Translations under genes and position numbers: made by a program
Notes under the pieces: model-generated
Told to the model about the DNA's origin: nothing
What the model saw: the letters and a program-made list of their open reading frames with translations, nothing else
Database searches by the model: none
Shown here: positions 3,705-30,850 of the stretch, one piece after another
Layout: the number at the start of each line of letters is the position of its first letter
Position numbering within the stretch: the first letter of the stretch is position 1
Origin: a virus
Lineage: Duplodnaviria > Heunggongvirae > Uroviricota > Caudoviricetes
Length of the DNA: 30,850 nt
Virus record (IMG/VR): IMGVR_UViG_2563366976_000009
Coordinates: 1 to 30,850 of that record
Direction: 5' to 3' (one strand)

Positions 3705-4107
3705 CGCCATAGACGCAATACTCTCACTTCCCATCGACGACAAGTCACCCCACGAAGTCCACGTTAAAGAATCCAAGCGTAGCAAAGCGCAGAATGACCG
3801 TATGTGGCCGATGCTGAACGATGTTTCGCGTCAGGTGCTATGGCATGGTCAACGGCTGGCGCCGGAAGACTGGAAAGACCTGTTCACTGCCCTGTGGCTT
3901 AAGACCAAAAAACTGGAGCAACGAAGTGTGCCTGGTATCGACGGTGGCGTTGTCATGCTTGGCGTGCGTACCAGCAAAATGCGAAAGGCCAGCATGACTG
4001 AGCTTATCGAAATCATGTTTTGGTTCGGCTCAGAGCGCAACGTGCGGTGGAGTGATGACTCCCGGCGAGAGTATGAATGGTCACAACGAACAGGGAGGGA
4101 GGCATGA
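3661..4107 (+). CDS. ninB: NinB recombination protein.
   Basis: MKQTF…DQNRxxW…DVSRQVxWHG…SDD… matches remembered lambda NinB along its length. The ORF-track start at 3559 is an upstream extension. Confidence 0.85.
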
Positions 4108-4286
4108 GGCGACAGCGACGAAGTTTCACCGACATCATCTGCGAAAACTGCAAATACCTTCCAACGAAACGCTCCAGAAATAAACGCAAGCCAATCCCAA
4201 AAGAATCTGACGTAAAAACCTTCAACTACACGGCTCACCTGTGGGATATCCGGTGGCTAAGACATCGTGCGAGGAAAACAAGGTGA
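4104..4286 (+). CDS. ninE: NinE protein.
   Basis: [60 protein letters not shown], near-identical to remembered lambda NinE. ATGA overlap with ninB. Confidence 0.85.
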
Positions 4287-4462
4287 TTGACCAAAATCGA
4301 AGTTACGAACAAGAAAGCGTCGAGCGGGCTTTAACGTGCGCTAATTGCGGTCAGAAGCTGCATGTGCTGGAAGTTCACGTGTGTGAGCGTTGTATATATG
4401 AATGCTTAAATATGGTGGAACATAATGAGAAATATAAGCAACATAGACGAATTAAGAAATAA
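4283..4462 (+). pseudogene. ninF: ninF interrupted by an insertion. The N-terminal 37 codons are NinF-like ([37 protein letters not shown]), then the frame runs into unrelated sequence inside the inserted HNH gene.
   Basis: GTG start overlapping the ninE stop (GTGA). Similarity to lambda NinF stops abruptly after …HVCERC at about 4395. Confidence 0.7.
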
Positions 4463-4931
4463 ATTATCATATGATGATGTTTTAGGTGTACTTAGATGGA
4501 AAGTGTCTCCTTCTAATAATGTTAAGGTTGGCAGTGTTGCTGGTTACATTAGGAGTGATGGTTATAGGATGTTAACTATCGATGGTGTAATTACTTATGC
4601 TCACCACGTTATATGGATGATAAATAATGGTGAGATTCCATTAGGGTATAAAATTGATCATATAAATGGAGTAAGGTCAGATAATAGGCTATCTAATCTT
4701 CGATTGGTTACACACCAACAGAATGCACAGAACCAAAAGAGAAAAATAACCAATTCGTCAGGAGTGACTGGAGTATATTTCAATAAAGAGAGATGCAAGT
4801 GGATTGCGAATATATGCGTAGATGGGCGCACCAAATATCTTGGAATATTTGCTAGCATCATTGACGCTATTGCAGAAAGGAAGAGGGCAGAAAAAGAACT
4901 GGGTTTTCATGAAAACCATGGCAGACCATAA
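4425..4931 (+). CDS. HNH endonuclease with C-terminal AP2-type DNA-binding domain (free-standing homing-endonuclease-like), inserted within ninF.
   Basis: HNH motif …IDHINGVRSDNRLSNLRLVTHQQNAQN; AP2-like segment SGVTGVYFNKERCKWIANICVDGRTKYLGIF. Confidence 0.8.
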   Translation: MRNISNIDELRNKLSYDDVLGVLRWKVSPSNNVKVGSVAGYIRSDGYRMLTIDGVITYAHHVIWMINNGEIPLGYKIDHINGVRSDNRLSNLRLVTHQQNAQNQKRKITNSSGVTGVYFNKERCKWIANICVDGRTKYLGIFASIIDAIAERKRAEKELGFHENHGRP

Positions 4932-4932
4932 C

Positions 4933-4992
4933 TGCGCAGAACTGATGAGCGATCCGAATAGCTCAATGTACGAGGAAGAAGACGATGGCTAA
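4933..4992 (+). other. ninF: Displaced 3' remnant of ninF ([19 protein letters not shown]), in a different frame from the ninF 5' part.
   Basis: Translation matches the remembered lambda NinF C-terminus (…[19 protein letters not shown]). It begins 1 nt after the HNH stop and overlaps the ninG start as in lambda. Confidence 0.6.
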
Positions 4993-5596
4993 ACCAGCGC
5001 GAAGACGATGTAAAAACGATGAATGTCGGGAATGGTTTCACCCTGCATTCGCCAATCAGTGGTGGTGCTCTCCAGAGTGTGGAACCAAGATAGCACTCGA
5101 ACGACGAAGTAAAGAACGCGAAAAAGCGGAAAAGGCAGCAGAGAAGAAACGACGACGAGAGGAGCAGAAACAGAAAGATAAACTTAAGATTCGAAAACTC
5201 GCCTTAAAGCCCCGCAGTTACTGGATTAAACAAGCCCAACAAGCCGTAAACGCCTTCATCAGAGAAAGAGACCACGACTTACCATGTATCTCGTGCGGAA
5301 CGCTCACGTCTGCTCAGTGGGATGCCGGACATTACCGGACAACTTCTGCGGCACCTCAACTCCGATTTGATGAACGCAATATTCACAAGCAATGCGTGGT
5401 GTGCAACCAGCATAAAAGCGGAAATCTCGTTCCGTATCGCGTCGAACTGATTAACCGCATCGGGCAGGAAGCAGTAGACGAAATCGAATTAAACCATAAC
5501 CGCCATCGCTGGACTGTCGAAGAGTGCAGGGCCATCAAGGCGGAGTATCAGCAGAAACTTAAAAATCTGCGAAACAGCAGAAGTGAGGCAGCATGA
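4985..5596 (+). CDS. ninG: NinG (Rap) recombination protein.
   Basis: 203 aa, Cys-rich N-terminus and lysine-rich coil; size and position match lambda NinG. Confidence 0.8.
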
Positions 5597-6264
5597 ATAT
5601 CTACGAAAGAATTGATGGCAGCAAATACCGAAATATTTGGGTAGCTGGCGACCTGCACGGATGCTACACGAACCTGATGAACAAACTGGATACGATTGGA
5701 TTCGACACCAAAAAAGACCTGCTTATCTCGGTTGGCGATTTGGTTGATCGTGGTGCAGAGAACGTTGAATGCCTGGAATTAATCACATTCCCCTGGTTCA
5801 GAGCTGTACGTGGAAACCATGAGCACATGATGATTGATGGCTTATCAGAGCGTGGAAACGTCAATCACTGGCTGCTTAATGGCGGTGGCTGGTTCTTTAA
5901 TCTCGATTACGACAAAGAAATTCTGGCTAAAGCTCTTGCCCATAAAGCAGATGAACTTCCGTTAATCATCGAACTGGTGAGCAAAGATAAAAAATATGTC
6001 ATCTGCCACGCCGATTATCCTTGTGACGAATACGAGTTTGGAAAGCCAGTTGATCATCAGCAGGTAATCTGGAACCGCGAACGAATCAGCAACTCACAAG
6101 ACGGGATCGTGAAAGAAATCAAAGGCGCGGACATGTTCATCTTTGGTCATACGCCAGCAGTGAAACCGCTCAAATTTGCCAACCAGATGTATATCGATAC
6201 CGGCGCAGTGTTCTGCGGAAATCTCACATTGATTCAGGTACAGGGAGAAGGCGCGTGGGCATAA
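5593..6264 (+). CDS. Ser/Thr protein phosphatase (lambda orf221 / NinI-type).
   Basis: GDLHG, GDLVDRG, GNHE calcineurin-like metallophosphatase motifs; near-identical to remembered lambda phosphatase. Confidence 0.9.
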
Positions 6265-6773
6265 GAGAACTAAACCTCACCAAAGAACAGCATGAGTGGC
6301 TGAATGGCTGGCTTGAACTGTGGGGCGCATGGGTTTATTCAGGTCGTCTGGAAAAGCGCATGAGCAGCGTAATAGCGAAGTTCATGGAGAGCGTAGAGCC
6401 GGGAAGAGTTATGACAAGGCCAATGTGTAATGATGATGATGGAATGTTGATTTCTCAGGTCGTCGATTCCGTCATGTACATTGACAAGAAAGCCTTTGGC
6501 ATCCTCCTCAGCTACTACGCTCATGGTTCATCTAAGCGAGCAATTGCATCCTACTATCACGCGACTGCAAAGCCACGCAAGATGTGTGGACGTGGTGGCG
6601 AGGGATGGAGAAAACCTTCAATGGCAACCTGTAGAAACGAAATTGACGACATCCTGAAAGCGTCGTTATTTGTTTTGTACCAACCAATGCAAAATGCTTT
6701 CAAAATGCGTAAACGTGTTGAGAAAGTTAAGCATGTTGCTGTTAAAAGTCTTGACATGCAATTAGCCATTTAG
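6255..6773 (+). CDS. Late-gene antiterminator Q (non-lambda Q family).
   Basis: Position immediately upstream of a late-promoter/terminator pair; WLELWGAW…RPMCNDDD motif resembles the Quu-type antiterminator family; not similar to lambda Q itself. Confidence 0.65.
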
Positions 6774-6780
6774 CCATAAT
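6751..6780 (+). promoter_or_regulatory. Candidate late promoter (PR'-like): -35 TTGACA (6751-6756), 18-bp spacer, -10 CATAAT (6775-6780), overlapping the Q stop codon.
   Basis: Consensus-like sigma70 hexamers read in the sequence; location matches lambdoid late promoters. Confidence 0.5.
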
Positions 6781-6820
6781 ATTCACATATGCTGCTGCTT
6801 TTGCATTCAGCAACCATCAC

Positions 6821-6846
6821 AAGCCCACCTCCTGTGGGCTTTTTTG
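6821..6846 (+). terminator. Rho-independent terminator about 40-60 nt downstream of the candidate late promoter (tR'-like): AAGCCCAC-ctcct-GTGGGCTT followed by TTTTT.
   Basis: Perfect 8-bp GC-rich stem and U-run read in the sequence. Confidence 0.65.
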
Positions 6847-6967
6847 CATTCGCGTGCAATCAAAACAAGAGTCTTAGTGATATGGGCCTGAGATATGGTG
6901 GTGGAAACATCGCTCCGCTCTTGGCTGTCATATCTACGCGAACAGGCTCTATCCCTAAGGTAAAGCG

Positions 6968-7480
6968 ATGAAAGAAATAAAATTAACGCCAGAAATGGTG
7001 CTTTCTGTTGTTGATTACAATCCATCATCAGGCGACTTTCACTGGAGATGGAGGCAGGGGAGAGAGAGGACCACTTTGACATGGAACTCTCGTTTTGCTT
7101 TCAAGAAATGCTCATCAATAAATTCTGATGGGTATTTAATGATTATGATTAATGGTAAAGCATGCCCTGCTCACAGACTGGCATGGTTGATTGTTTATGG
7201 CACCATGCCCGATGGTTTTATTGATCACATCAACAGGGTAAGAACAGATAACCGGATATCAAATCTTCGTCTTGTCACTCATTCCGAAAATATGCAAAAC
7301 AGGAAAATTCAGAAGAATAATAAATCTGGATACCGTGGCGTGTCTTGGGATGCTAAGTACGGGAAATGGAGAGCAAGAATTAATGCGTCTGGAAAGTGTA
7401 TTAACCTTGGATACCATGACACTGCCGAACTTGCCGCTGCGGCTTTTGAGGCAGCCAGAATGAAATATCATACCGTTTAA
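6968..7480 (+). CDS. Second HNH endonuclease with AP2-type domain, paralogous to the one in ninF.
   Basis: …IDHINRVRTDNRISNLRLVTHSENMQN… and YRGVSWDAKYGKWRARINASGKCINLGY; RBS AAGG before the ATG. Confidence 0.8.
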   Translation: MKEIKLTPEMVLSVVDYNPSSGDFHWRWRQGRERTTLTWNSRFAFKKCSSINSDGYLMIMINGKACPAHRLAWLIVYGTMPDGFIDHINRVRTDNRISNLRLVTHSENMQNRKIQKNNKSGYRGVSWDAKYGKWRARINASGKCINLGYHDTAELAAAAFEAARMKYHTV

Positions 7481-7491
7481 AGATGTAAGCT

Positions 7492-7530
7492 GCCGTTAGT
7501 GACTCTTAAGTTGCAACGGTGGCTTTTTTT
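7492..7530 (+). terminator. Weak terminator-like hairpin with a 7-T run downstream of the second HNH gene.
   Basis: Imperfect stem (GCCGTT…AACGG/GGC) followed by TTTTTTT. Confidence 0.35.
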
Positions 7531-7913
7531 ATTTGCACAACAGGTAAGAGCATTGAGTCGATAATCGTGAAGAGTCGGCGCGCCTGGTTAGCCAGTGCTC
7601 TTTCCGTTGTGCTGAATTAAGCGAATACCGGAAGCAGAACCGGATCACCAAATGCGTACAGGCGTCATCGCCGCCCAGCAACAGCACAACCCAAACTGAG
7701 CCGTAGCCACTGGCTATCCTGAATTCATCAGTGATAGTTACGCTGCGGCCTTCTACACATGACCTTCGTGAAAGCGGGTGGCAAGAGGTTGCGCTAACAA
7801 CCTCCTGCCGTTTTGCCCGTGCATATCGGTCACGAACAAATCTGATTACTAAACACAGTAGCCTGGATTTGTTCTATCAGTAATCGACCTTATTCCTAAT
7901 TAAATAGAGCAAA

Positions 7914-7948
7914 TCCCCTCAATGAAGGGGTAGAGCATGTACCGTATG
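7914..7948 (+). promoter_or_regulatory. Holin translational control region: stem-loop CCCCT-caatga-AGGGG (7915-7930) just upstream of dual in-frame starts (ATG 7937 and ATG 7946, giving MYRM…).
   Basis: Hairpin and two in-frame Met codons read directly; same architecture as the lambda S sdi structure with S107/S105 dual starts. Confidence 0.5.
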
Positions 7949-8140
7949 GACAAAATCAGAGAATGGTTCAGTTACAGCTTCGGAGGACTGACTGCGATGG
8001 GTGGCATTCTCTCCCTGAATGACTGGGCTGTCATCATTGGTATTCTTTGTACTGTCGGCACATTTGGCATCAACTGGTACTACAAGCGCAAAGAGCGCGA
8101 GGACAGATTGAATGGCAATGTCACCGGCACTACGAAATAG
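7937..8140 (+). CDS. Holin (two predicted transmembrane segments, possibly pinholin-like) with a dual-start motif.
   Basis: 67 aa with two hydrophobic segments ([33 protein letters not shown]) and a charged C-terminus; located immediately 5' of the endolysin. Confidence 0.55.
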
Positions 8141-8615
8141 CGTAATAGCGGCGATAAGTGGCGGGGCTATTGCTATAGCATCTGTGTTAATCACTGGACC
8201 AAGTGGTAACGATGGCCTGGAAGGTGTCAGCTACATACCATACAAAGATATTGTTGGTGTATGGACTGTATGCCACGGACACACCGGAAAAGACATCATG
8301 CTCGGTAAAACGTATACCGAAGCAGAATGCAAAGCCCTCCTGAATAAAGACCTTGCCACGGTCGCCAGACAAATTAACCCGTACATCAAAGTCGATATAC
8401 CGGAAACAACGCGCGGCGCTCTTTATTCGTTCGTCTATAACGTGGGCGCAGGCAATTTCAGAACATCGACGCTTCTTCGCAAAATCAACCAGGGCGATAT
8501 CAAGGGCGCATGTGACCAGCTACGTCGCTGGACATACGCTGGCGGTAAGCAATGGAAAGGGCTGATGACTCGCCGTGAGATTGAGCGTGAAGTCTGTTTG
8601 TGGGGGCAGCAATGA
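8112..8615 (+). CDS. SAR endolysin (phage 21 R-like lysozyme with N-terminal signal-anchor-release domain).
   Basis: Weakly hydrophobic Gly/Ala-rich N-terminus ([17 protein letters not shown]) followed by the lysozyme core [23 protein letters not shown]. Confidence 0.9.
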
Positions 8616-9049
8616 GCAGAGTAACTGCGATTATCTCCGCTCTGGTTATCTGCATCATCGTCTGCCTGTCATGGGCTGTTAATCATTACCGTGATAACGC
8701 AATCGCCTACAAAGAGCAGCGCGATAAGGCCGCATCCACAATTGCTGACATGCAGAAGCGTCAACGTGATGTAGCAGAACTTGACGCCAGATACACAAAG
8801 GAGCTTGCTGATGCTAACGCGACTATCGAAAGTCTCCGTGCTGATGTTTCTGCTGGTCGTAAGCGCCTGCAAGTCGCCGCCACCTGTGCAAAGTCAACGA
8901 CCGGAGCCAGCAGCATGGGCGATGGAGAAAGCCCAAGACTTACAGCAGATGCTGAACTCAATTATTACCGTCTCCGAAGTGGAATCGACAAGATAACCGC
9001 GCAGGTTAACTACCTGCAGGAATACATCAGGACGCAATGCCTGAAATAA
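8612..9049 (+). CDS. Rz: Rz i-spanin.
   Basis: [31 protein letters not shown]… near-identical to remembered lambda Rz at the N-terminus; ATGA overlap with the endolysin. Confidence 0.9.
8811..8996 (+). CDS. Rz1: Rz1 o-spanin lipoprotein, embedded in the +1 frame of Rz.
   Basis: Signal peptide with lipobox ([20 protein letters not shown]), then a proline-rich segment ([13 protein letters not shown]); fully nested within Rz. Confidence 0.7.
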
Positions 9050-9080
9050 TTTTTTTGCAAATCACAAAGTCAATTTAATG

Positions 9081-9103
9081 AGCCTCGCGATGCGGGGCTT
9101 TTT
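9081..9103 (+). terminator. Rho-independent terminator after the lysis cassette.
   Basis: AGCCTCG-cgatg-CGGGGCT stem followed by TTTTT. Confidence 0.5.
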
Positions 9104-9110
9104 GCAATAA

Positions 9111-9135
9111 ATGCGTACCGCAACGCATGTTTTTT
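9111..9135 (+). terminator. Second tandem terminator.
   Basis: ATGCGT-accgca-ACGCAT stem followed by GTTTTTT. Confidence 0.5.
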
Positions 9136-9250
9136 ACACCGAACCTGCCCCTTTGGAATGGGCCTTTGAGGATACCAGTTAGTGCTGGCGAGCCTCGGTG
9201 GGCTGGTTTCCTATGCGGCAAAGGTTCATTTCAAATGGTAGGTAAACGTT

Positions 9251-9772
9251 ATGAATATCGTGCCACTTAATTACAAAGGTGAAATTGTCAGTTTCAACAC
9301 TGATGGTTGGATCAACGTCACAGGTGTTGCTGAGAGATTTGGAAAACGCATTGATAACTGGATGCGTTTGGCAGAAACGCTTGAATACGTTCGTGCTTTA
9401 GACGAAGCGTTGACCGGGAAAGAATCTCAAATTTTACATCCCTCACAATCGAGGTATGTAAAAACCAGCAAGGCACGAAAGGACAGGGGTGGTGGTACGT
9501 GGCTACATCCAAAACTTTCAGTTGCATTTGCCCGTTGGTGTGATGCTCGTTTTGCTGTGTGGTGCGACCTGCACATTGATAGTCTGCTTCGCGGTGAACT
9601 GACTGAGCAGCAGAAATATGAGCAAGCATGTCGCATTCGCGATGACCGGAAATCAAAAGCCAGCAATGGGGCAAGAGAGATGGCTCGCTGGCGATGGGAT
9701 AAGCCGGTTATTGAAGCAAATGTTGAGTACTGGCGCGAGCAACTGCAGTTGACTCTCGATATCGCGTGCTGA
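9251..9772 (+). CDS. KilA-N domain protein.
   Basis: N-terminal …FNTDGWINVTGVAERFGKRIDNWMR…LHPKLSVAFARW resembles the KilA-N DNA-binding domain. Confidence 0.55.
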   Translation: MNIVPLNYKGEIVSFNTDGWINVTGVAERFGKRIDNWMRLAETLEYVRALDEALTGKESQILHPSQSRYVKTSKARKDRGGGTWLHPKLSVAFARWCDARFAVWCDLHIDSLLRGELTEQQKYEQACRIRDDRKSKASNGAREMARWRWDKPVIEANVEYWREQLQLTLDIAC

Positions 9773-10459: not shown

Positions 10460-10954
10460 ATGAATATGGCAGCACCAAAGGGCAACCGATTCTGGGAGGC
10501 CCGCAGTAGTCATGGGCGAAACCCTAAATTCGAATCGCCTGAGGCGCTGTGGGCTGCTTGTTGTGAATACTTCGAGTGGGCTGATGATAACCCGCTATGG
10601 GAGGGTAAGGTATTTTCATATCAGGGAGAAATAATTAAGGCTAATCTTCCTAAGATGCGAGCCATGACTATTTCAGGATTGTGTACCTTCCTTGATATCA
10701 CCAGGCAAACATGGGGAACCTTCCGGTCAATGGAAGGTTTTTCTGACGTCACATCACGAGCGGAAGACATCATCTACGACCAGAAATTCTCTGGCGCAGC
10801 CGCTGACCTTCTCAACGCTAACATCATCGCCCGTGATTTGGGCCTCAAAGAGCAGTCGCAAGTTGAAGACGTGACACCTGATAAGGGAGATCGCGATAAG
10901 CGACGCTCTCGTATCAAGGAGCTATTCAACCGTGGAACTGGACGCGATTCTTGA
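10460..10954 (+). CDS. Terminase small subunit.
   Basis: 164 aa, immediately upstream of and overlapping the large terminase; size and position as P22 gp3. Confidence 0.6.
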
Positions 10955-12428
10955 TAACCTGAGCGACGAAGAGCAAATCGAGTTGCTCGAGCTACTCGAA
11001 GAAGAAGAGAACTACCGGAACACACACCTGCTATATGAATTTACGCCATACAGCAAACAGCGTGAGTTCATCGACGCCGGGCATGACTATCCAGAGCGCT
11101 GTTTTATGGCTGGTAACCAGCTTGGTAAGTCATTTACTGGTGCTGCTGAAGTCGCGTTTCACCTTACCGGGCGTTATCCGGGCACAAAAGGCTATCCTGC
11201 TGATGGTAAATATGGCGGTGAGTGGAAAGGTAAGCGTTTCTATGAGCCTGTTGTCTTCTGGATTGGCGGCGAGACAAACGAGACTGTAACCAAAACGACT
11301 CAACGCATCCTGTGCGGTCGTATTGAAGAGAATGACGAGCCAGGCTACGGTTCCATACCGAAAGAAGACATCATTAGCTGGAAGAAGTCTCCTTTCTTTC
11401 CGAACCTTGTTGATCATCTTCTGGTTAAGCATCACACGGCTGATGGCGTTGAAGATGGCATTTCAATCTGCTACTTCAAACCATACTCGCAAGGACGCGC
11501 TCGCTGGCAGGGTGACACAATCCACGGCGTGTGGTTTGACGAAGAGCCACCATACAGCATTTATGGCGAAGGGCTTACCCGTACCAACAAATACGGGCAA
11601 TTCTCAATTCTGACGTTTACCCCGCTGATGGGGATGTCTGACGTTGTTACCAAGTTCCTGAAGAATCCCAGCAAGTCGCAGAAAGTGGTCAACATGACCA
11701 TCTATGACGCTGAGCACTACACCGACGAGCAGAAAGAGCAAATCATCGCATCTTATCCTGAGCATGAGAGAGAGGCGCGTGCTCGCGGTATTCCTACGAT
11801 GGGTAGCGGTCGAATCTTCCAGATACCGGAAGAGACGATTAAGTGTCAGCCGTTCGAGTGTCCTGATCACTTCTACGTCATCAATGCAATGGACTTCGGA
11901 TGGGATCACCCACAGGCACATATCCAGCTTTGGTGGGATAAAGACGAGGACGTGATTTATCTTTCTCGCGTCTGGAAGGCCAAACAGAAGAAGGCGACAG
12001 AGGCATGGAGTGCTGTTAAAGCATGGAGCAAAAACACCCCTACGGCTTGGCCTCATGACGGGCATCAGCACGAAAAGGGAGGCGGCGCTCAGCTCAAGGA
12101 ACAATACGCCGACGCTGGGTTCGACATGTTGCCAGATCATGCAACATGGCCTGATGGAGGTAATGCGGTCGAACCCGGGATAGCAGAGATACGCGACATG
12201 ATGCTCGACGGTCGTTTCAAGGTATTTAACACCTGCGAGCCATTCTTTGAAGAGTTTCGCCTGTATCACCGCGATGAGAACGGGAAGATCGTCAAGCTAA
12301 ATGACGACATCCTTTCTGCTGTTCGCTATGGCTACATGATGAGGCGTTTTGCAATACAGATGCGAGACATCAAAGATCCTAAAGAGATTGATTACTCAAG
12401 CTACAACATACCTTGCGGAGTTGGATGA
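10932..12428 (+). CDS. Terminase large subunit (GTG start).
   Basis: 498 aa; ATPase/nuclease-type terminase features and P22 gp2-like position and size. Confidence 0.85.
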
Positions 12429-24170: not shown

Positions 24171-24560
24171 TTAACATTTTCTTTTTACTTTTCCAACAAA
24201 AGCTTTGGTTGAATCCATATTCCCATAACCAGAAATGGTTTTTGACATTAAAACTGTTCCAGTAGGATGTATTACCCATGAGTCGATAACGCGTTGAGTT
24301 TCGCCATTCGCGCCGATTCCTATGATGGAGTTTTTAGACAATGCTTTGTAAGCCATGCCGTCCGCATCTGTCCCAGAATATGTGATGCTGGCATCTTCAC
24401 CGCTTGTCTTAATGATGAATGTTCCACTAAAACCATCTTCTTCCGGATGGAAATTATTTCGTTCTGAATAGCTTATTCCGCGCATATCTCCAACGACCCA
24501 GCACTCTGCTGTAGCCCCAAAAGATATGAATAAGAACATAGCAGCAAGAAATTGCTTCAC
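24171..24560 (-). CDS. Secreted (signal-peptide) protein of unknown function, about 129 aa, in the cargo island.
   Basis: GTG start with AAGGAG RBS 6 nt upstream on the minus strand. N-terminus MKQFLAAMFLFISFGATA/ECW… is a signal-peptidase-I type signal. One Cys near the mature N-terminus and one at the extreme C-terminus. Confidence 0.5.
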   Translation of the reverse strand: MKQFLAAMFLFISFGATAECWVVGDMRGISYSERNNFHPEEDGFSGTFIIKTSGEDASITYSGTDADGMAYKALSKNSIIGIGANGETQRVIDSWVIHPTGTVLMSKTISGYGNMDSTKAFVGKVKRKC

Positions 24561-24590
24561 ACCAAGCTCCTTAGTTTTGAGCAGGATACC

Positions 24591-24956
24591 ATGAAAAAAG
24601 TTAACATTGGAAACGTACCAAAGATGCTCGTTCCGCTCTTTGAGAGCGGTACAATTGTGTTTTGTAGAGACTTTCCAGAATGGCAACGCCTGCATCAAAA
24701 ACTTGGCGTTGACGTGCATGACTCGGACGCCAACGGAGCGTCTCATACAATGAGCAGCGAGAATGGTGTTTTGCATGTGATAGGCGTGTTCAATGGCAAA
24801 CTATCTACTATTGCCCATGAGTGCGCTCACATGGCATTCGATATCTGCTCAAGGGTCGGTGTTGATGTTGAACCAGGAAGAGCCAATGAGACTTACTGCT
24901 ACTTAATGAGCAGGCTTGTTGAGTTCTGCGAGCGACATATCAAAAAGCCGGAGTGA
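24591..24956 (+). CDS. Small HExxH protein (121 aa), putative zinc metallopeptidase of the ImmA/IrrE (M78)-like type.
   Basis: Motif STIAHECAHMAFD followed about 14 residues later by E…ANE. Divergent from the secreted-protein gene, with only about 30 bp between start codons. Confidence 0.45.
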   Translation: MKKVNIGNVPKMLVPLFESGTIVFCRDFPEWQRLHQKLGVDVHDSDANGASHTMSSENGVLHVIGVFNGKLSTIAHECAHMAFDICSRVGVDVEPGRANETYCYLMSRLVEFCERHIKKPE

Positions 24957-24963
24957 CCCGGCT
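24941..24963 (-). terminator. Rho-independent terminator for the minus-strand small gene, overlapping the stop codon of the + strand HExxH gene.
   Basis: AGCCGG-agtgac-CCGGCT stem with the U-run on the minus strand (plus-strand AAAAA at 24942-24946). Confidence 0.5.
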
Positions 24964-24969
24964 TGAGTA

Positions 24970-25149
24970 TTACTTTTTGCTGTCTGGAGTTCGCTTATCC
25001 AATACCCAGCCATGACCTGGCTTTGTTGTTGGTGGAAGCCTTTCGTTGTCCTTGACGGTTGCAAAATTGTCTTTCTTACCGCCGCGTGGGCCAACTTCTT
25101 GGTATATTCCGCCGTTTTTTCCTGTGTTTTCACCTGGTTTTTTCGCCAT
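24970..25149 (-). CDS. Small hydrophilic Gly/Lys-rich protein (59 aa), YjzC-like.
   Basis: MAKKPGENTGKNGGIYQEVGPRGG… resembles the YjzC-type small-protein pattern. GAGG RBS; candidate promoter TTGACT-17-AATATT upstream on the minus strand. Confidence 0.4.
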   Translation of the reverse strand: MAKKPGENTGKNGGIYQEVGPRGGKKDNFATVKDNERLPPTTKPGHGWVLDKRTPDSKK

Positions 25150-25240
25150 GATATACCTCAACATATACCCGTTATTGGGCGATTAAATATTGATCTCATT
25201 TTATAAGTAGTCAATATGGCCCAGGTAAATGCAAAAATTA

Positions 25241-25264
25241 ACCCACCGTCAGGTGGGTTTTTTT
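25241..25264 (+). terminator. Strong, probably bidirectional, rho-independent terminator.
   Basis: ACCCACC-gtca-GGTGGGT stem followed by TTTTTT on the + strand and preceded by an A-run (U-run for the minus strand). Confidence 0.65.
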
Positions 25265-25296
25265 ATCTTCTCTACTTTAAAGATTAAGGAAATACC

Positions 25297-25482
25297 ATGA
25301 CCATAGAAGAACGTCTGAACAACATTGAGTTGAATCAAACCCTGCTTGACCAGCGACTTTCAGATCTTGAGCTTAAAGATCTAGATGTGCAAATATCAGA
25401 AGCAGAAGCCAAGCTCTCCAGCTTAAACCACCGCAGGAAGCAAATCCGCGACAGAATTACTCGTGGACGCGGAGGCTGTTAA
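25297..25482 (+). CDS. Hypothetical 61-aa coiled-coil protein.
   Basis: AAGGAAA RBS before the ATG; heptad-like leucine spacing; no family recognised. Confidence 0.35.
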   Translation: MTIEERLNNIELNQTLLDQRLSDLELKDLDVQISEAEAKLSSLNHRRKQIRDRITRGRGGC

Positions 25483-25559
25483 GGTGTGATGGTAATCCTT
25501 GCTCACTAAATTTAAGGATGCGAATCTTTCCGGCCATAGGAGTAATCATGATTTACCCA

Positions 25560-26096
25560 TCAAACAACCCACCAGTTTGCCTGATTGGATACCAGCCTTG
25601 CAGTTTTTATGGAATTAATTATGCCATGCTCAAGAGCCTTGTTAGCATCCAAAATGGTCGAGTCTGCTATCAGGGATGCCCACCTAATATGGGTTCCGAT
25701 GTCGATATTGAACGTCTCAACGAAGCGATCAAGATCGTTATCGAGGCATTTCCCGTACTCTCTCAATCTGGCATGGTCGGCGGCTGGGGAGGCAAAGCAC
25801 CATAATAGAGGATGTAACAGGAATCTTGATAATGGGTTTGCGAAACGTTCTGAGCCAGCCAGGAAAACGATATTAGCTATGGATTCAACATTGCTTATGT
25901 TGTGAGTTCTAACGGTAACAGGGAGTGACTTAAGAAAGTTATACGCAGTAAAGCCAGCGGCAGTTTCCCCTCCCTGACTTGATATATGGATATTTAATTC
26001 AGTTGCGCCTTGAGATAATGCGGTGAGACAGTGGTTCTGAAGTTGCCCAACAGTGGCAGTGTTAACGGGGCATAAGAAATGAATTGTGTGCAGCAT
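25560..26096 (-). CDS. ClpP-fold (Clp protease-like) serine protease, 178 aa, translationally coupled to mnt.
   Basis: …IHISSQGGETAAGFTAYNFLKSLPVTVRTHNISNVESIANIVFLAGSERFANPLSRFLLHPL… aligns with the ClpP core (INSPGG…TAG…GQAASMG…LPNSRxMIHQP). The Ser and His positions appear conserved. Its ATG overlaps the mnt stop (TAATG). Confidence 0.6.
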   Translation of the reverse strand: MLHTIHFLCPVNTATVGQLQNHCLTALSQGATELNIHISSQGGETAAGFTAYNFLKSLPVTVRTHNISNVESIANIVFLAGSERFANPLSRFLLHPLLWCFASPAADHARLREYGKCLDNDLDRFVETFNIDIGTHIRWASLIADSTILDANKALEHGIINSIKTARLVSNQANWWVV

Positions 26097-26880: not shown

Positions 26881-27804
26881 ATGACGAGTGTAGCAATTGC
26901 AGAACATACAATCAACGTTCCATTCCACGGAACAAATCTCTTTTTGGTCAGCATTAACAATGAACCTTACGTTCCTATGAAACCCGTTGTAGAAGGCATG
27001 GGTATGGTTTGGGCTGCTCAATTTGTTAAATTAAAACAGAGATTTGTCAAAGGTATTTCGGAAATCGAAATACCTTCTGCTGGCGGTAAACAGTTAATGA
27101 TATGCCTTGCCTTTCGTAAGTTTGCGGCTTGGCTTTCAAGCATTCAGCCAAACAAAGTCCGCCCTGAAATCCGCGACAAGGTAATCCAGTATCAGGAAGA
27201 GTGTGACGATGTGCTCTACGAGTACTGGACTAAAGGCCATGTGGTTAACCCGCGCAAAGCTAAAAAGGCATTGCCGGGGAAAATCACCACTGAACAGCAG
27301 GAAGCCATTAAACAACTCGTCATGAGTCGCGGTCAGTCTCTGCCAAAAGAAAAACAGGCTAAGGCGATGATCACCATGTGGTCGTCACTGAAATCCCATT
27401 TTGGGTGTTCATACAAAGAAATCAGCGAGGAGCAGTTTACCGAAGCTCTGTCACTTGCTGCTCGCGTTCCGCTTGAAGGTGAGTTCATTGGCAAACAAGA
27501 GAAGAAAACCAACGAGCTTTCTGCAAAAGAAGCAAACAGCCTTGTATGGTTATGGGATTATGCCAACCGTTCACAGGCATTATTCCGCGAATTGTATCCG
27601 GCGCTAAAACAAATTCAATCGAACTATTCAGGCAGATGTCATGACTGCGGTTATGAGTTCTCCCGTATTATCGATATGGCGAGAGATGTTTTAATCAACC
27701 ATACACGAGATGTTGATATTAATGAGCCAGGCGGACCGACGAACCTTTCAGCATGGATAAGACTTAAGAATAAAGAATTACCTCCTTCAGTACATAACTA
27801 CTGA
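26881..27804 (+). CDS. ant: Antirepressor Ant.
   Basis: N-terminal …VPFHGTNLFLV…PYVPMKPVVEGMGMVW…PEIRDKVIQYQEECDDVLYEYWTKG parallels remembered P22 Ant; position after arc. Confidence 0.8.
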   Translation: MTSVAIAEHTINVPFHGTNLFLVSINNEPYVPMKPVVEGMGMVWAAQFVKLKQRFVKGISEIEIPSAGGKQLMICLAFRKFAAWLSSIQPNKVRPEIRDKVIQYQEECDDVLYEYWTKGHVVNPRKAKKALPGKITTEQQEAIKQLVMSRGQSLPKEKQAKAMITMWSSLKSHFGCSYKEISEEQFTEALSLAARVPLEGEFIGKQEKKTNELSAKEANSLVWLWDYANRSQALFRELYPALKQIQSNYSGRCHDCGYEFSRIIDMARDVLINHTRDVDINEPGGPTNLSAWIRLKNKELPPSVHNY

Positions 27805-27904: not shown

Positions 27905-30850
27905 ATGAGAGACATTACAGCCAATGTGATCGTATCGATGCCTTCGCAACTCTTCACTATGGCGCGTTCTTTTAAAGCCGTAGCCAATGGCAAAATTTAT
28001 ATCGGTAAAATTGACACTGACCCTGTAAATCCTGAAAACCAGATTCAGGTTTATGTGGAAAACGAAGACGGCTCTCACGTTCCTGTTTCGCAACCAATCA
28101 TCATTAACGCTGCTGGATATCCTGTATATAACGGACAGATTGCCAAATTCGTAACTGTGCAAGGCCATTCTATGGCTGTTTATGATGCGTATGGTGCGCA
28201 GCAGTTCTATTTTCCGAATGTGCTGAAGTATGATCCTGATCAGTTACGGCGGCAATTAGAAGACCCAGATGGAGCGAATAAATACCCAAAACTTCAGATA
28301 GCAAGATGGAGAGACAGTTATGATGTAAGAGGTTGGGGGGCTATTGGTGATGGTGTTCATGATGATACATCAGCTCTATCAGAATTACTTTCTGTTGCAA
28401 CAGGTGGTGAAAAGATAGATGGGCGAGGGCTTACTTTTAAAGTATCAAATCTTCCGGATGTCAGTCGATTTAAAAATGCTCGTTTTTTATTTGAGAGAAT
28501 ACCGGGTCAGCCTCTTTTTTATGCTTCTGAAGATTTTATCCAGGGAGAGTTATTTAAAATTACAGATACACCGTGGTACAACGCCTGGACGCAGGATAAA
28601 ACGTTTGTATATGACAATGTCATCTATGCGCCTTTTATGGCTGGAGACCGCCATGGTGTAAATAACCTCCATGTTGCATGGGTTCGCTCAGGAGATGACG
28701 GGAAGACCTGGACAACGCCGGAATGGCTTACAGATTTACATGAAAACTATCCCACAGTTAACTATCACTGCATGAGTATGGGGGTTGTCAGAAATCGCCT
28801 TTTTGCTGTAATTGAGACGCGGACCGTGAGAGGAAATAAACTGCAGGTTGCAGAGTTGTGGGATCGCCCAATGAGTCGCAGCCTTCGCGTTTATGGTGGT
28901 ATAACGAAAGCAGCAAATCAGCAAGTCGCTTATATTCGCATTACTGATCACGGATTATTTGCTGGTGATTTTGTCAACTTCTCAAACTCTGGTGTTACAG
29001 GTGTTACCGGGAATATGACGGTGACTACTGTTATTGATAAAAATACTTTTACAGTTACGACGCAAAATACCCAGGATGTGGATCAGAATAACGAGGGTAG
29101 ATACTGGAGTTTTGGTACATCATTTCACTCGTCACCATGGAGAAAAACCAGTCTTGGAACTATTCCTTCTTTTGTTGACGGAAGCACTCCTGTTACTGAG
29201 ATTCACAGTTTTGCGACGATTAGCGATAACAGTTTTGCTGTTGGCTACCATAATGGTGATATTGGTCCACGCGAGCTTGGGATACTCTATTTCTCTGATG
29301 CTTTCGGTTCTCCTGGTAGCTTTGTTCGCAGACGCATACCTGCAGAATATGAGGCGAATGCATCTGAGCCATGTGTAAAATATTATGATGGCATTCTGTA
29401 TCTGACGACCAGGGGGACATTAAGTACTCAACCCGGTAGTTCATTGCACAGAAGCTCTGATTTAGGTACATCATGGAATTCTCTTCGCTTCCCAAATAAT
29501 GTTCATCACTCAAACCTTCCTTTTGCCAAAGTTGGCGATGAGCTGATTATTTTTGGCAGTGAGCGCGCATTTGGTGAGTGGGAAGGAGGAGAACCTGATA
29601 ACCGTTATGCAGGAAATTATCCAAGAACATTTATGACCAGAGTTAACGTCAATGAGTGGAGTCTGGATAATGTAGAGTGGGTTAATGTTACTGATCAGAT
29701 TTATCAGGGCGGAATAGTTAACTCTGCGGTTGGTGTTGGTTCAGTTTGTATCAAAGACAACTGGCTGTACTACATTTTCGGTGGGGAAGACTTTCTAAAC
29801 CCATGGAGCATAGGGGATAACAACAGAAAATATCCTTATGTTCACGATGGTCACCCGGCTGATTTATATTGTTTCAGGGTGAAAATCAAACAGGAAGAAT
29901 TTGTTTCAAGGGATTTTGTCTACGGAGCCACTCCTAACAGAACGCTTCCTACTTTGATGTCGACGTCAGGCGTGAGGACGGTTCCTGTACCCGTTGATTT
30001 CACAGATGATGTTGCCGTCCAGTCACTGACTGTCCATGCAGGTACATCAGGACAAGTTCGCGCGGAAGTCAAACTTGAGGGTAATTACGCCATTATTGCG
30101 AAGAAAGTACCGTCTGATGATGTTACCGCTCAGAGATTAATCGTTAGCGGCGGTGAAACAACGTCTTCAGCAGATGGTGCAATGATAACGTTGCATGGTT
30201 CCAGAAGCAGTACTCCACGTCGCGCGGTATATAACGCACTCGAACATCTTTTTGAGAACGGAGATGTTAAACCTTATCTTGATAATGTAAATGCTCTTGG
30301 TGGTCCGGGAAACAGGTTCTCGACAGTTTATCTTGGCTCCAATCCTGTGGTTACCAGTGACGGAACATTAAAGACAGAGCCGGTCTCTCCTGACGAAGCA
30401 TTGCTGGATGCCTGGGGTGACGTCAGGTATATCGCTTATAAATGGCTGAACGCTGTCGCTATAAAGGGGGAAGAAGGGGCGAGGATACATCATGGTGTAA
30501 TCGCGCAGCAACTTCGTGATGTTCTTATTTCTCACGGACTCATGGAAGAAGAAAGCACAACATGCCGCTATGCCTTTCTTTGCTATGACGATTATCCCGC
30601 AGTATATGATGACGTCATTACTGGCCAAAGGGAAATGCCGCTGACTGATAATGACGGGAGCATCATTGTTGATGAGGATGATAATCCAGTGATGGTAATG
30701 GAAGACATCATTGAGCGCGTTGAAATAACGCCAGCAGGATCTAGATGGGGGGTCAGACCTGATCTCTTATTCTATATCGAGGCGGCATGGCAGCGCAGAG
30801 AAATGGATAAGATAAAAGCTAGGTTAGACTTAATAGAAGGGAAGCACTAA
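27905..30850 (+). CDS. Tailspike: N-terminal P22-type head-binding domain fused to an endosialidase (endo-N-acetylneuraminidase) with a C-terminal intramolecular chaperone domain.
   Basis: N-terminus [11 protein letters not shown]…[38 protein letters not shown]…[15 protein letters not shown]…NVLKYDPDQ matches remembered P22 gp9 residues 1-110. GDGVHDDT motif, two Asp-boxes (SGDDGKTW near 28687-28710; SSDLGTSW near 29450-29475), and a C-terminal …[12 protein letters not shown]…[15 protein letters not shown]…WGVRPDLLF…AAWQRR… chaperone domain, as in K1-phage endosialidases. Stop codon at the last 3 nt of the window. Confidence 0.85.

Follow-up and report, generated by a model that had tools for sequence, protein, structure and literature searches.

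The pairing of an HNH nuclease with an AP2 domain is referred to in PMC10448857 (citing Magnani 2004) as a recognised homing-endonuclease architecture, and the closest described family, the 'IPA-HNH' proteins of vibriophage ICP1 (Barth et al. 2023, PMC10448857), consists of free-standing, sporadically distributed genes with an N-terminal HNH and a C-terminal AP2 domain. A gene of this layout, here called HNH2, lies between the late antiterminator gene Q and the lysis genes of a tailed-phage (Caudoviricetes) sequence of 30,850 nucleotides (nt), IMG/VR record IMGVR_UViG_2563366976_000009, positions 1 to 30,850, hereafter the window. Unlike the ICP1-type HNH domains, which are too divergent for Pfam HNH_3 (PMC10448857), that of HNH2 is a canonical HNH_3; whereas the ICP1-type genes cluster near polymerase, ribonucleotide reductase (RNR) and terminase genes, the HNH2 lineage is tied to one non-coding niche, the late leader of phages with a phage-21-type Q (Q21), and is further set apart by the structured leader RNA that it carries. 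The fold of the nuclease core is shared with I-HmuI, the HNH nicking endonuclease of phage SPO1, which differs in residing in a group I intron and in having a helical, helix-turn-helix (HTH) C-terminal DNA-binding part, whereas HNH2 is intron-less and has AP2 instead. The same cassette, at 99.2-99.9% nucleotide identity and in the same post-Q position, is found in phage HK629 (gp61, AFM76545) and in a prophage of E2348/69 (WP_000658764), where it is already annotated 'HNH endonuclease'; the downstream modules differ (lambda-type holin, tRNAs), and the HK629 record annotates the first terminator, not the leader RNA, and places a putative pR' inside the leader. With a probability of roughly 0.6, we read HNH2 as a free-standing homing-type endonuclease in a compact cassette that has settled in the Q21-type late leader, depends on Q for its expression and is not the maker of the mosaic joints around it.

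The protein itself leaves little doubt about its family. An earlier note on this DNA, made from the letters alone, had proposed an open reading frame (ORF) with an HNH plus an AP2 domain, and this is borne out by profile scores of 65.3 bits for HNH_3 (PF13392; His-Me finger; curated cut-off 24.8) and 35.1 bits for AP2 (PF00847; cut-off 33.3). Across 15 diverse homologues, including both HNH proteins of the window, the catalytic D-H...N...N motif is intact, with D86, H87, N89, D94, N95, R96, N99 and N111 invariant, and the AP2 core residues G121, G124, V125 and W134 are kept. The AlphaFold2 model (mean pLDDT 86) has I-HmuI (1u3e) as its top fold in the PDB over residues ~15-115 (Foldseek probability 1.0, E 6e-3, 108 aligned columns), accompanied by weak sequence similarity over the HNH_3 core; the modest overall TM-score (0.36) is due to differing C-terminal domains, that of HNH2 matching the AP2 domains of AtERF1 (1gcc, root-mean-square deviation 1.8) and TEM1 (7et5, 1.3), with sequence-level support from a match to WRI1 (2e-6). 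The identical protein is present on 475 contigs. An NCBIfam search of the protein returned no match, PADLOC matches were limited to generic auxiliary 'homing endonuclease' models, and a role in a defence system was dropped, as no match pointed to one. Taken by itself, HNH2 is an unremarkable representative of a known family of selfish genes, and its nuclease activity, its target and its homing would be expected by analogy with that family.

The late promoter pR' is, like Q, of the phage 21/Sf6 type, and its elements were located with the help of the annotated records of phage 21 and Sf6, to which the window was aligned; it contains repeats resembling Q-binding elements (QBE), ATTAGCCA and TTTAGCCA, at 6761-6776, and transcription would start near 6787, just before a TATGCTG (6788-6794) that resembles a sigma-dependent pause. 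The earlier note had put HNH2 just downstream of this promoter and a terminator, which holds for the upstream terminator, tR'a, but overlooked a second, phage-21-type one, tR'b, directly behind the gene; within the late leader, HNH2 has a tR'-type terminator on each side. The part of the leader that contains tR'a (6781-6866) is 80% identical to the post-Q leader of Hafnia phage yong1, which continues straight to the holin gene, and tR'b is 100% identical to an annotated terminator of phage 21 (39543-39590) and 98% identical to its counterparts in Sf6 and SPN9CC. The alignment with Sf6 and SPN9CC breaks off at 6780, within the -10 hexamer, and picks up again at 7485 with the phage-21-type tR'. 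A sigma-70 consensus scan of the plus strand from 6600 to 8000 found no promoter-like site except pR', and none dedicated to HNH2. As the cassette lies at least 34 nt downstream of the predicted pR' start, behind an intrinsic terminator, and no sigma-70 promoter of its own was detected, HNH2 would be transcribed only by Q-modified RNA polymerase, that is, within Q-antiterminated RNA, late in lytic growth.

The cassette, which we take to comprise the structured leader RNA, the ORF and a terminator, appears to have its niche in lambdoid and P22-like phages with a phage-21-type Q, where it is optional. Among 5426 complete E. coli genomes, 39-41 have the 704-bp insert (≥99% identity), as does phage HK629, and ~360 have the uninterrupted Sf6-type pR'-tR'; ~10% of the E. 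coli prophages with this Q type carry the insert and ~90% are without it. A comparison with phages lacking the insertion, as the earlier note had suggested, uncovered clean empty sites of three kinds: pR' followed by tR'b and then the lambda-like leader (NU14, F5), pR' followed by tR'a and then the lambda-like leader (E. coli WCHEC115106) and, in phage yong1 set against L086-L089 (our handles for compared sequences), a clean insertion after tR' flanked by the direct repeat CTTTTTGCATT. Presence/absence polymorphism among close relatives with intact empty sites, as expected of a homing gene, is thus what we found, and the same cassette is shared by a cos phage (the lambdavirus HK629) and pac/headful P22-like phages. 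Its fidelity to the site is also evident: ten HNH-bearing loci, representing ~7 sequence lineages with 53-100% amino acid (aa) identity to HNH2, all lie directly after a Q gene of the Q21 family, and the relatives at 70, 66, 61 and ~53% aa identity (E. coli, Serratia and other hosts) are all between such a Q and the lysis genes. Most copies of HNH2 are intact (42/45, the other three degenerate), with a ratio of synonymous to nonsynonymous codon changes of 23:20. The alternative that the gene is a fixed, conserved part of the late leader of this phage lineage is correct only in that it is a long-standing resident of one site; fixed it is not. These comparisons portray the cassette as an old but optional resident of the Q21 late-leader niche, for which active homing is plausible.

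The same distribution also bears on the best-placed competing explanation, one that we consider unlikely, namely, that HNH2 is a domesticated late nuclease of benefit to the phage, non-homing and vertically fixed with the Q module; it might interfere with rival phages or satellites, whether co-infecting or resident, or degrade host DNA. Several observations weigh in its favour and against homing. The identities of Q and HNH are correlated, as if the two co-diverged (r = 0.82), and long vertical descent together with the Q module would account for the distribution about equally well; the position is constant over the ten loci; the tree of E. coli Q alleles fits one acquisition, one loss and recombination; the moderate purifying selection, with most copies intact, could stem from a benefit to the phage instead of from selfish spread; and expression, judging from the anatomy, would be late and Q-dependent. 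Furthermore, cleavage, target site and gene conversion are all predictions for HNH2, the effect of the leader RNA on translation is deduced solely from predicted pairing, and the leader precedes unrelated genes too and is not specific to the nuclease. Domestication, in turn, sits poorly with an occupancy of just ~10% among near-identical Q alleles, with identical HNH genes beside Q genes that are 95% identical (L086 vs L087; L090 vs L091), with the existence of degenerate copies and with PADLOC matches confined to the auxiliary homing endonuclease models.

Under the homing reading, which we prefer, the nuclease most likely cuts the DNA of related phages that are devoid of the cassette; cutting would favour copying of the cassette via the conserved flanks, Q and pR' on the left and the terminator and leader on the right, or, as an alternative benefit, would simply handicap competing phages.

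A different role was envisaged in the earlier note, according to which the window's two HNH genes (HNH2 and a homologue, HNH1, inside ninF) both sit at junctions between lambda-like and non-lambda segments and took part in creating these mosaic joints; the mechanism would be cutting that stimulated recombination between the two kinds of segment. Nuclease genes at the boundaries of genetic exchange have indeed been documented in other phages (PMC10448857), and a 21/lambda joint lies 45-55 bp downstream of the HNH2 stop codon. Moreover, in the PhiR12 phages a recombination joint falls inside the HNH ORF itself, after its first 68 nt; therefore, recombination can cut through the nuclease gene. 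In PhiR12_1 (L006, 2501-2755), and also in E. coli NCTC9112, the first 255 nt of the insert are all that remain, comprising the terminator, the leader and 68 nt of the ORF, joined to a late region of the Stx-phage type. Neither HNH gene of the window, however, sits on a lambda/non-lambda junction: HNH2 has phage-21-family sequence on both sides, and HNH1 interrupts ninF as a clean insertion whose flanks are collinear. The lambda-like character of the holin leader, for its part, was read correctly (Table 1), but the joint between the terminator and this leader is identical in the HNH-less prophages NU14, F5 and WCHEC115106, and tR'a alone and tR'b alone each occur in HNH-less phages, in each case already joined to the lambda-like leader. 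Genomes with and without HNH also display the same range of downstream modules (tRNA-Asn/Thr or the lambda-like leader; lambda-type or class II holin), those with HNH combining, for instance, tRNA-Asn/Thr with a lambda-type holin or the lambda-like leader with a class II holin, among other arrangements. Because the joints are present in HNH-less phages as well, they are independent of the nucleases; the comparison indicates that HNH2 did not create the joints surrounding it, and the joint-making explanation, for these particular joints, is largely refuted and now quite improbable.

The sequence behind the second terminator varies on its own account. The lambda-like leader occupies the place of tRNA-Asn and tRNA-Thr in phage 21, Sf6 and E2348/69; a tRNA scan found no tRNA genes in the window, the Q-S interval included. 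The slot at 7536-7693 holds 158 nt of lambda-like leader in the window, tRNA-Asn/tRNA-Thr in phage 21, Sf6, SPN9CC and the HNH-bearing prophages of E2348/69, TUM1880, M160133 and pCDF6_2, and yet other sequences in HK629, NU14 and F5. The slot just after tR' is small and hypervariable.

That HNH2 might act mainly through AP2-type DNA binding, regulating late or lysis gene expression with an inactive nuclease, fits the good conservation of the AP2 domain and the location of the gene inside a regulatory leader, but is very improbable given the invariance of the catalytic motif among the diverse homologues, none of which, at this position, was seen without the HNH part. Finally, although HNH proteins commonly serve as packaging cofactors in cos phages, a terminase-associated function in DNA packaging of the HK97 gp74 kind is excluded by position and distribution, the gene being ~3 kb upstream of the terminase genes (10460-12428) with the lysis cassette in between, shared by cos (HK629) and headful (P22-like) packagers, absent from ~90% of the phages with this Q type and a member of the HNH_3 plus AP2 family with I-HmuI and AP2 folds.

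Between tR'a and the start codon of HNH2 lies the second main feature of the cassette, a structured leader RNA of 121 nt whose helices were derived with RNAalifold and hand parsing and checked in 10 representatives (Table 1). The fold comprises a long outer helix, Pd, within which the bulged helix Pb and the apical hairpin Pc are nested, and two long-range interactions, the pseudoknot Pa and a kissing interaction, K. The Shine-Dalgarno (SD) sequence of HNH2, AAGG at 6957-6960, falls in the 3' strand of Pd, and this pairing is present in all three sequence subfamilies. Among 41 collinear copies there is no polymorphic site in the leader, against 24 in the 513-nt coding sequence; 19 of the 121 leader nucleotides were fixed by the search anchor, and ~4.8 polymorphic sites would be expected in the remaining 102. 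Furthermore, the leader is still recognisable before HNH genes that are just 53-70% identical and recurs before unrelated KilA-N genes (in Klebsiella and other phages), the similarity ending exactly at the ATG.

Covariation supports the fold. In the model-fitted alignment, whose underlying model left out Pa and K, 92.9% of cells pair vs 87.1% in shuffles and 17 pairs are changed on both sides, which 0/500 shuffles reach; controls slid along the sequence pair at 34-54%. A plain MAFFT alignment of 20 sequences of a different subfamily gave 89.2% vs 85.5% pairing and 17 vs 4.1 double changes (again 0/500). K alone exists in at least 10 sequence versions, all still complementary: UUCGCGU/ACGCGAA, UCGCA/UGCGA, UUCACC/GGUGAA, UUCGCAU/AUGCGAA, CGCUC/GAGCG, UGCCC/GGGCA, CCGCA/UGCGG, CUGACAU/AUGUCAG, UCACAC/GUGUGA and UCGUAC/GUGCGA. 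Two covariance models were used, R1 for the HNH/KilA-N subfamily and R2 for the Rha subfamily, the latter built with no sequence of the window; R1 scores the HNH2 leader at 121 bits, and R2 scores 6830-6970 at 41 bits (E 4e-9). Rfam 15, including c4, isrK, ribozymes and riboswitches, had no match at E<=1 within 6000-9500 and none at E<=5 at the leader copies in L008, L010, L011 and L132; a hammerhead-like core and a tRNA remnant, considered as identities of the leader, were dropped for lack of a match.

A 60-aa ORF (6789-6971) crosses the terminator and the leader and overlaps the HNH2 start in an ATGA; the same translation spuriously extends the N-terminus of a homologue in its 199-aa database form (protein P0010). 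We rejected this ORF as a coding leader peptide, since it spans a terminator and the indels of its relatives are not multiples of three. Conservation across 6789-6971 is at the RNA level, not at the protein level.

Conserved structure with compensatory changes, the ribosome-binding site included, as found here, is expected of a cis-regulatory leader, and the pairing model suggests an effect on translation. The leader probably holds down or gates translation of HNH2: by hiding the ribosome-binding site, the folded RNA would limit the synthesis of a potentially harmful nuclease or make it conditional, and the fold could be opened by RNA processing, by alternative 5' ends or by the action of a factor or ligand. 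As for a riboswitch, the features observed are limited to the complexity of the fold and an SD helix that resembles an expression platform.

The leader is not confined to HNH2. A second, diverged copy, with all six helices collinear, lies in the same window (Table 1), directly upstream of a KilA-N gene (9251-9772) and preceded by a terminator at ~9084-9107. R1 did not detect this copy in its search of the window, and the next, unrelated match of R2 in the window after both copies reaches 11.6 bits. Over 99 nt, the second copy and the sequence preceding rha in P22 share 98% identity. In P22 (AB362338, L272), the leader spans 1163-1317 upstream of rha/ORF201, and the annotated start of this gene (1246) lies inside it; the true ATG is likely 1315-1317, as modelled, in which case Rha may be ~23 aa shorter than annotated. 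The leader is also found in CUS-3, ES18, HK544, many Stx phages and phages of Hafnia, Erwinia and Enterobacter; in HK106 and g341c it precedes GIY-YIG nuclease genes, and in a Klebsiella phage a gene annotated 'homing endonuclease'. One leader subfamily alone occurs in 546/5426 complete E. coli genomes (~10%), including DH5alpha, in which the match lies over a gene with the annotation 'GIY-YIG nuclease family protein' and the copy presumably belongs to a phi80-derived prophage. The gene after the leader is a DNA-binding or nuclease accessory gene, be it Rha, KilA-N, GIY-YIG or HNH-AP2, and an intrinsic terminator lies within ~25 nt upstream in the copies whose upstream flank was inspected, save for a few Rha-type copies with no obvious terminator.

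Several phage contigs contain two copies of the leader (L227, 997-1137 and 3050-3197; L162, 8831-8978 and 11112-11256; L120, 9718-9866 and 10612-10753), each preceding a different gene and the two differing in their kissing-loop sequences. A different loop/bulge 'code' in each copy might keep the leaders of one genome from pairing with each other.

Leaders that cover the SD of a phage nuclease gene have precedents. Those of T4 I-TevI and Aeh1 mobE are simple, gene-specific hairpins over the SD of a nuclease gene within a longer operon; the leader in the window, in contrast, is ~120 nt long, contains two pseudoknots and is common to HNH-AP2, KilA-N, Rha and GIY-YIG genes. In P1 and P7, the c4 antisense RNA and its a1/b1 sites serve antirepressor control, and there too the leader of antirepressor-type genes holds a stem-loop RNA whose two unpaired regions form pairs with two short segments further upstream; we regard this resemblance as a lead only. 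In the window leader, the pairing partners lie in cis within one compact fold, and a separate helix pairs with the SD. A degenerate motif scan of a one-genome-per-species collection yielded chance matches alone, in unrelated phyla, and no RNA motif upstream of Rha, KilA-N or HNH genes was found described in the searchable literature. We see an even chance that the leader represents a previously undescribed, widespread, doubly pseudoknotted class, a portable 5' module that gates the translation of late-operon accessory cassettes of lambdoid and P22-like phages; the gated products (HNH-AP2, GIY-YIG, KilA-N, Rha) would be potentially toxic DNA-binding or nuclease proteins, and the response possibly one to a factor or ligand.

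Table 1. Features of the window discussed in the text (paired strands of helices are separated by a slash)
Feature	Position	Strand	Basis or remark
HNH-AP2 endonuclease gene (HNH2)	6968..7480	+	ATG start, 170 aa, Pfam HNH_3 + AP2
Late promoter pR'	6751..6794	+	-35 6751-6756, -10 6775-6780; scan matches 11/12 positions
First intrinsic terminator tR'a	6821..6846	+	Terminator scan: 8-bp stem + T-run
Second intrinsic terminator tR'b, phage-21-type tR'	7486..7535	+	Alignment to annotated phage terminators
Lambda-like late leader up to holin gene	7524..7932	+	96.6% identity to lambda 44775-45181
Structured leader RNA	6847..6967	+	Covariance models, 10 representatives, pair statistics
Leader helix H1	6844-6847/6856-6859		Hairpin directly after terminator U-tract
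Leader kissing interaction K	6849-6855/6936-6942		H1 loop with Pb bulge
Leader pseudoknot Pa	6866-6871/6918-6923		Segment 5' of Pd with apical internal loop
Leader helix Pd	6873-6877/6955-6959 + 6879-6882/6950-6953		Long; 3' strand covers SD 6957-6960
Leader helix Pb	6884-6890/6943-6949 + 6891-6898/6928-6935		Holds 5-7-nt bulge
Leader helix Pc	6900-6903/6908-6911		Apical hairpin, variable loop
Second, diverged leader copy	9097..9253	+	R2 59.9 bits, E 3e-14 (filters off)
HNH1, HNH(-AP2) homologue within ninF	4425..4931	+	BLASTP, Pfam, PHROG, alignment
Late antiterminator Q, phage 21/Sf6 type	6255..6773	+	Pfam Phage_antitermQ 1.1e-25

The relationship between the two HNH genes of the window, described in the earlier note as paralogues, proved to be one of homology without recent duplication. 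The proteins share 49% identity over a 99-aa core (BLASTP, E 3e-28) and both match PHROG phrog_99 end to end, but are only 35% identical over the whole alignment and, therefore, are not recent duplicates; they appear to be homologues from different sub-lineages. Pfam called no AP2 domain in HNH1 at E<=0.01, and its AP2 core residues nevertheless align with those of HNH2. HNH1 came in as a clean insertion of ~543 bp (4389-4931) inside ninF, whose N- and C-terminal parts are left on either side; in the corresponding empty site, in the F5 prophage (L009), window positions 4094-4388 and 4932-5596 sit 4 nt apart. Additional HNH or HNH-AP2 genes are found in the nin region of related prophages (L086/L088, 2776-3297; L090/L092, 2544-3098; L091, 2042-2518; L150, 489-1055), some located before NinG, some between NinG and Q and others in the NinH-Q interval. 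The HNH-AP2 family has repeatedly landed in the nin region.

As a whole, the window represents a CUS-3-type P22-like prophage, with terminase, portal and coat genes of the Sf6 type and with the gene order NinB, HNH1, NinG, NinI, Q, HNH2, class II holin, lysozyme, Rz and the KilA-N gene. Its Q DNA is 99% identical to Sf6 gene 59 and 85% identical to the Q region of phage 21. The tailspike gene (27905-30850), which continues past the end of the window, encodes a P22 head-binding domain, then endosialidase domains and, last, the beginning of a chaperone domain, and these domains mark the phage as CUS-3-like and, by prediction, specific for the K1 capsule. On the minus strand, two ORFs (24171-26096) lie between the injection-protein genes and a P22-type antirepressor gene (26881-27804), one (25560-26096) encoding a ClpP-like protease and the other (24171-24776) a 201-aa protein without a Pfam match; the pair is probably a moron or an immunity-region insert.

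Two aspects of this locus appear to be new, in that neither was found in Rfam 15 or the searchable literature. The first is the faithfulness of one HNH-AP2 lineage to a single non-coding niche between tandem terminators, by virtue of which the nuclease should appear only after antitermination; the finding that HNH2 made no joints, in addition, removes an attractive but unsupported story. The second is a complex, strongly covarying leader RNA that is common to many accessory genes with no relation to one another, among them rha of the model phage P22, and accounts for mis-annotated starts, such as those of P22 ORF201 and the 199-aa form of HNH. Rha of P22 and phi80 is described, in a report citing Henthorn & Friedman 1995 (PMC4936722), as detrimental when control by the host IHF is lost; hence, tight control is needed for at least one of the genes that follow this leader. 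If the leader controls translation, it would be a common, previously unnoticed regulatory device of temperate enterobacterial phages, a modular 'gene socket' that would explain the swapping of accessory genes exactly at the start codon and would offer an easily testable system in P22 and lambda-type phages.

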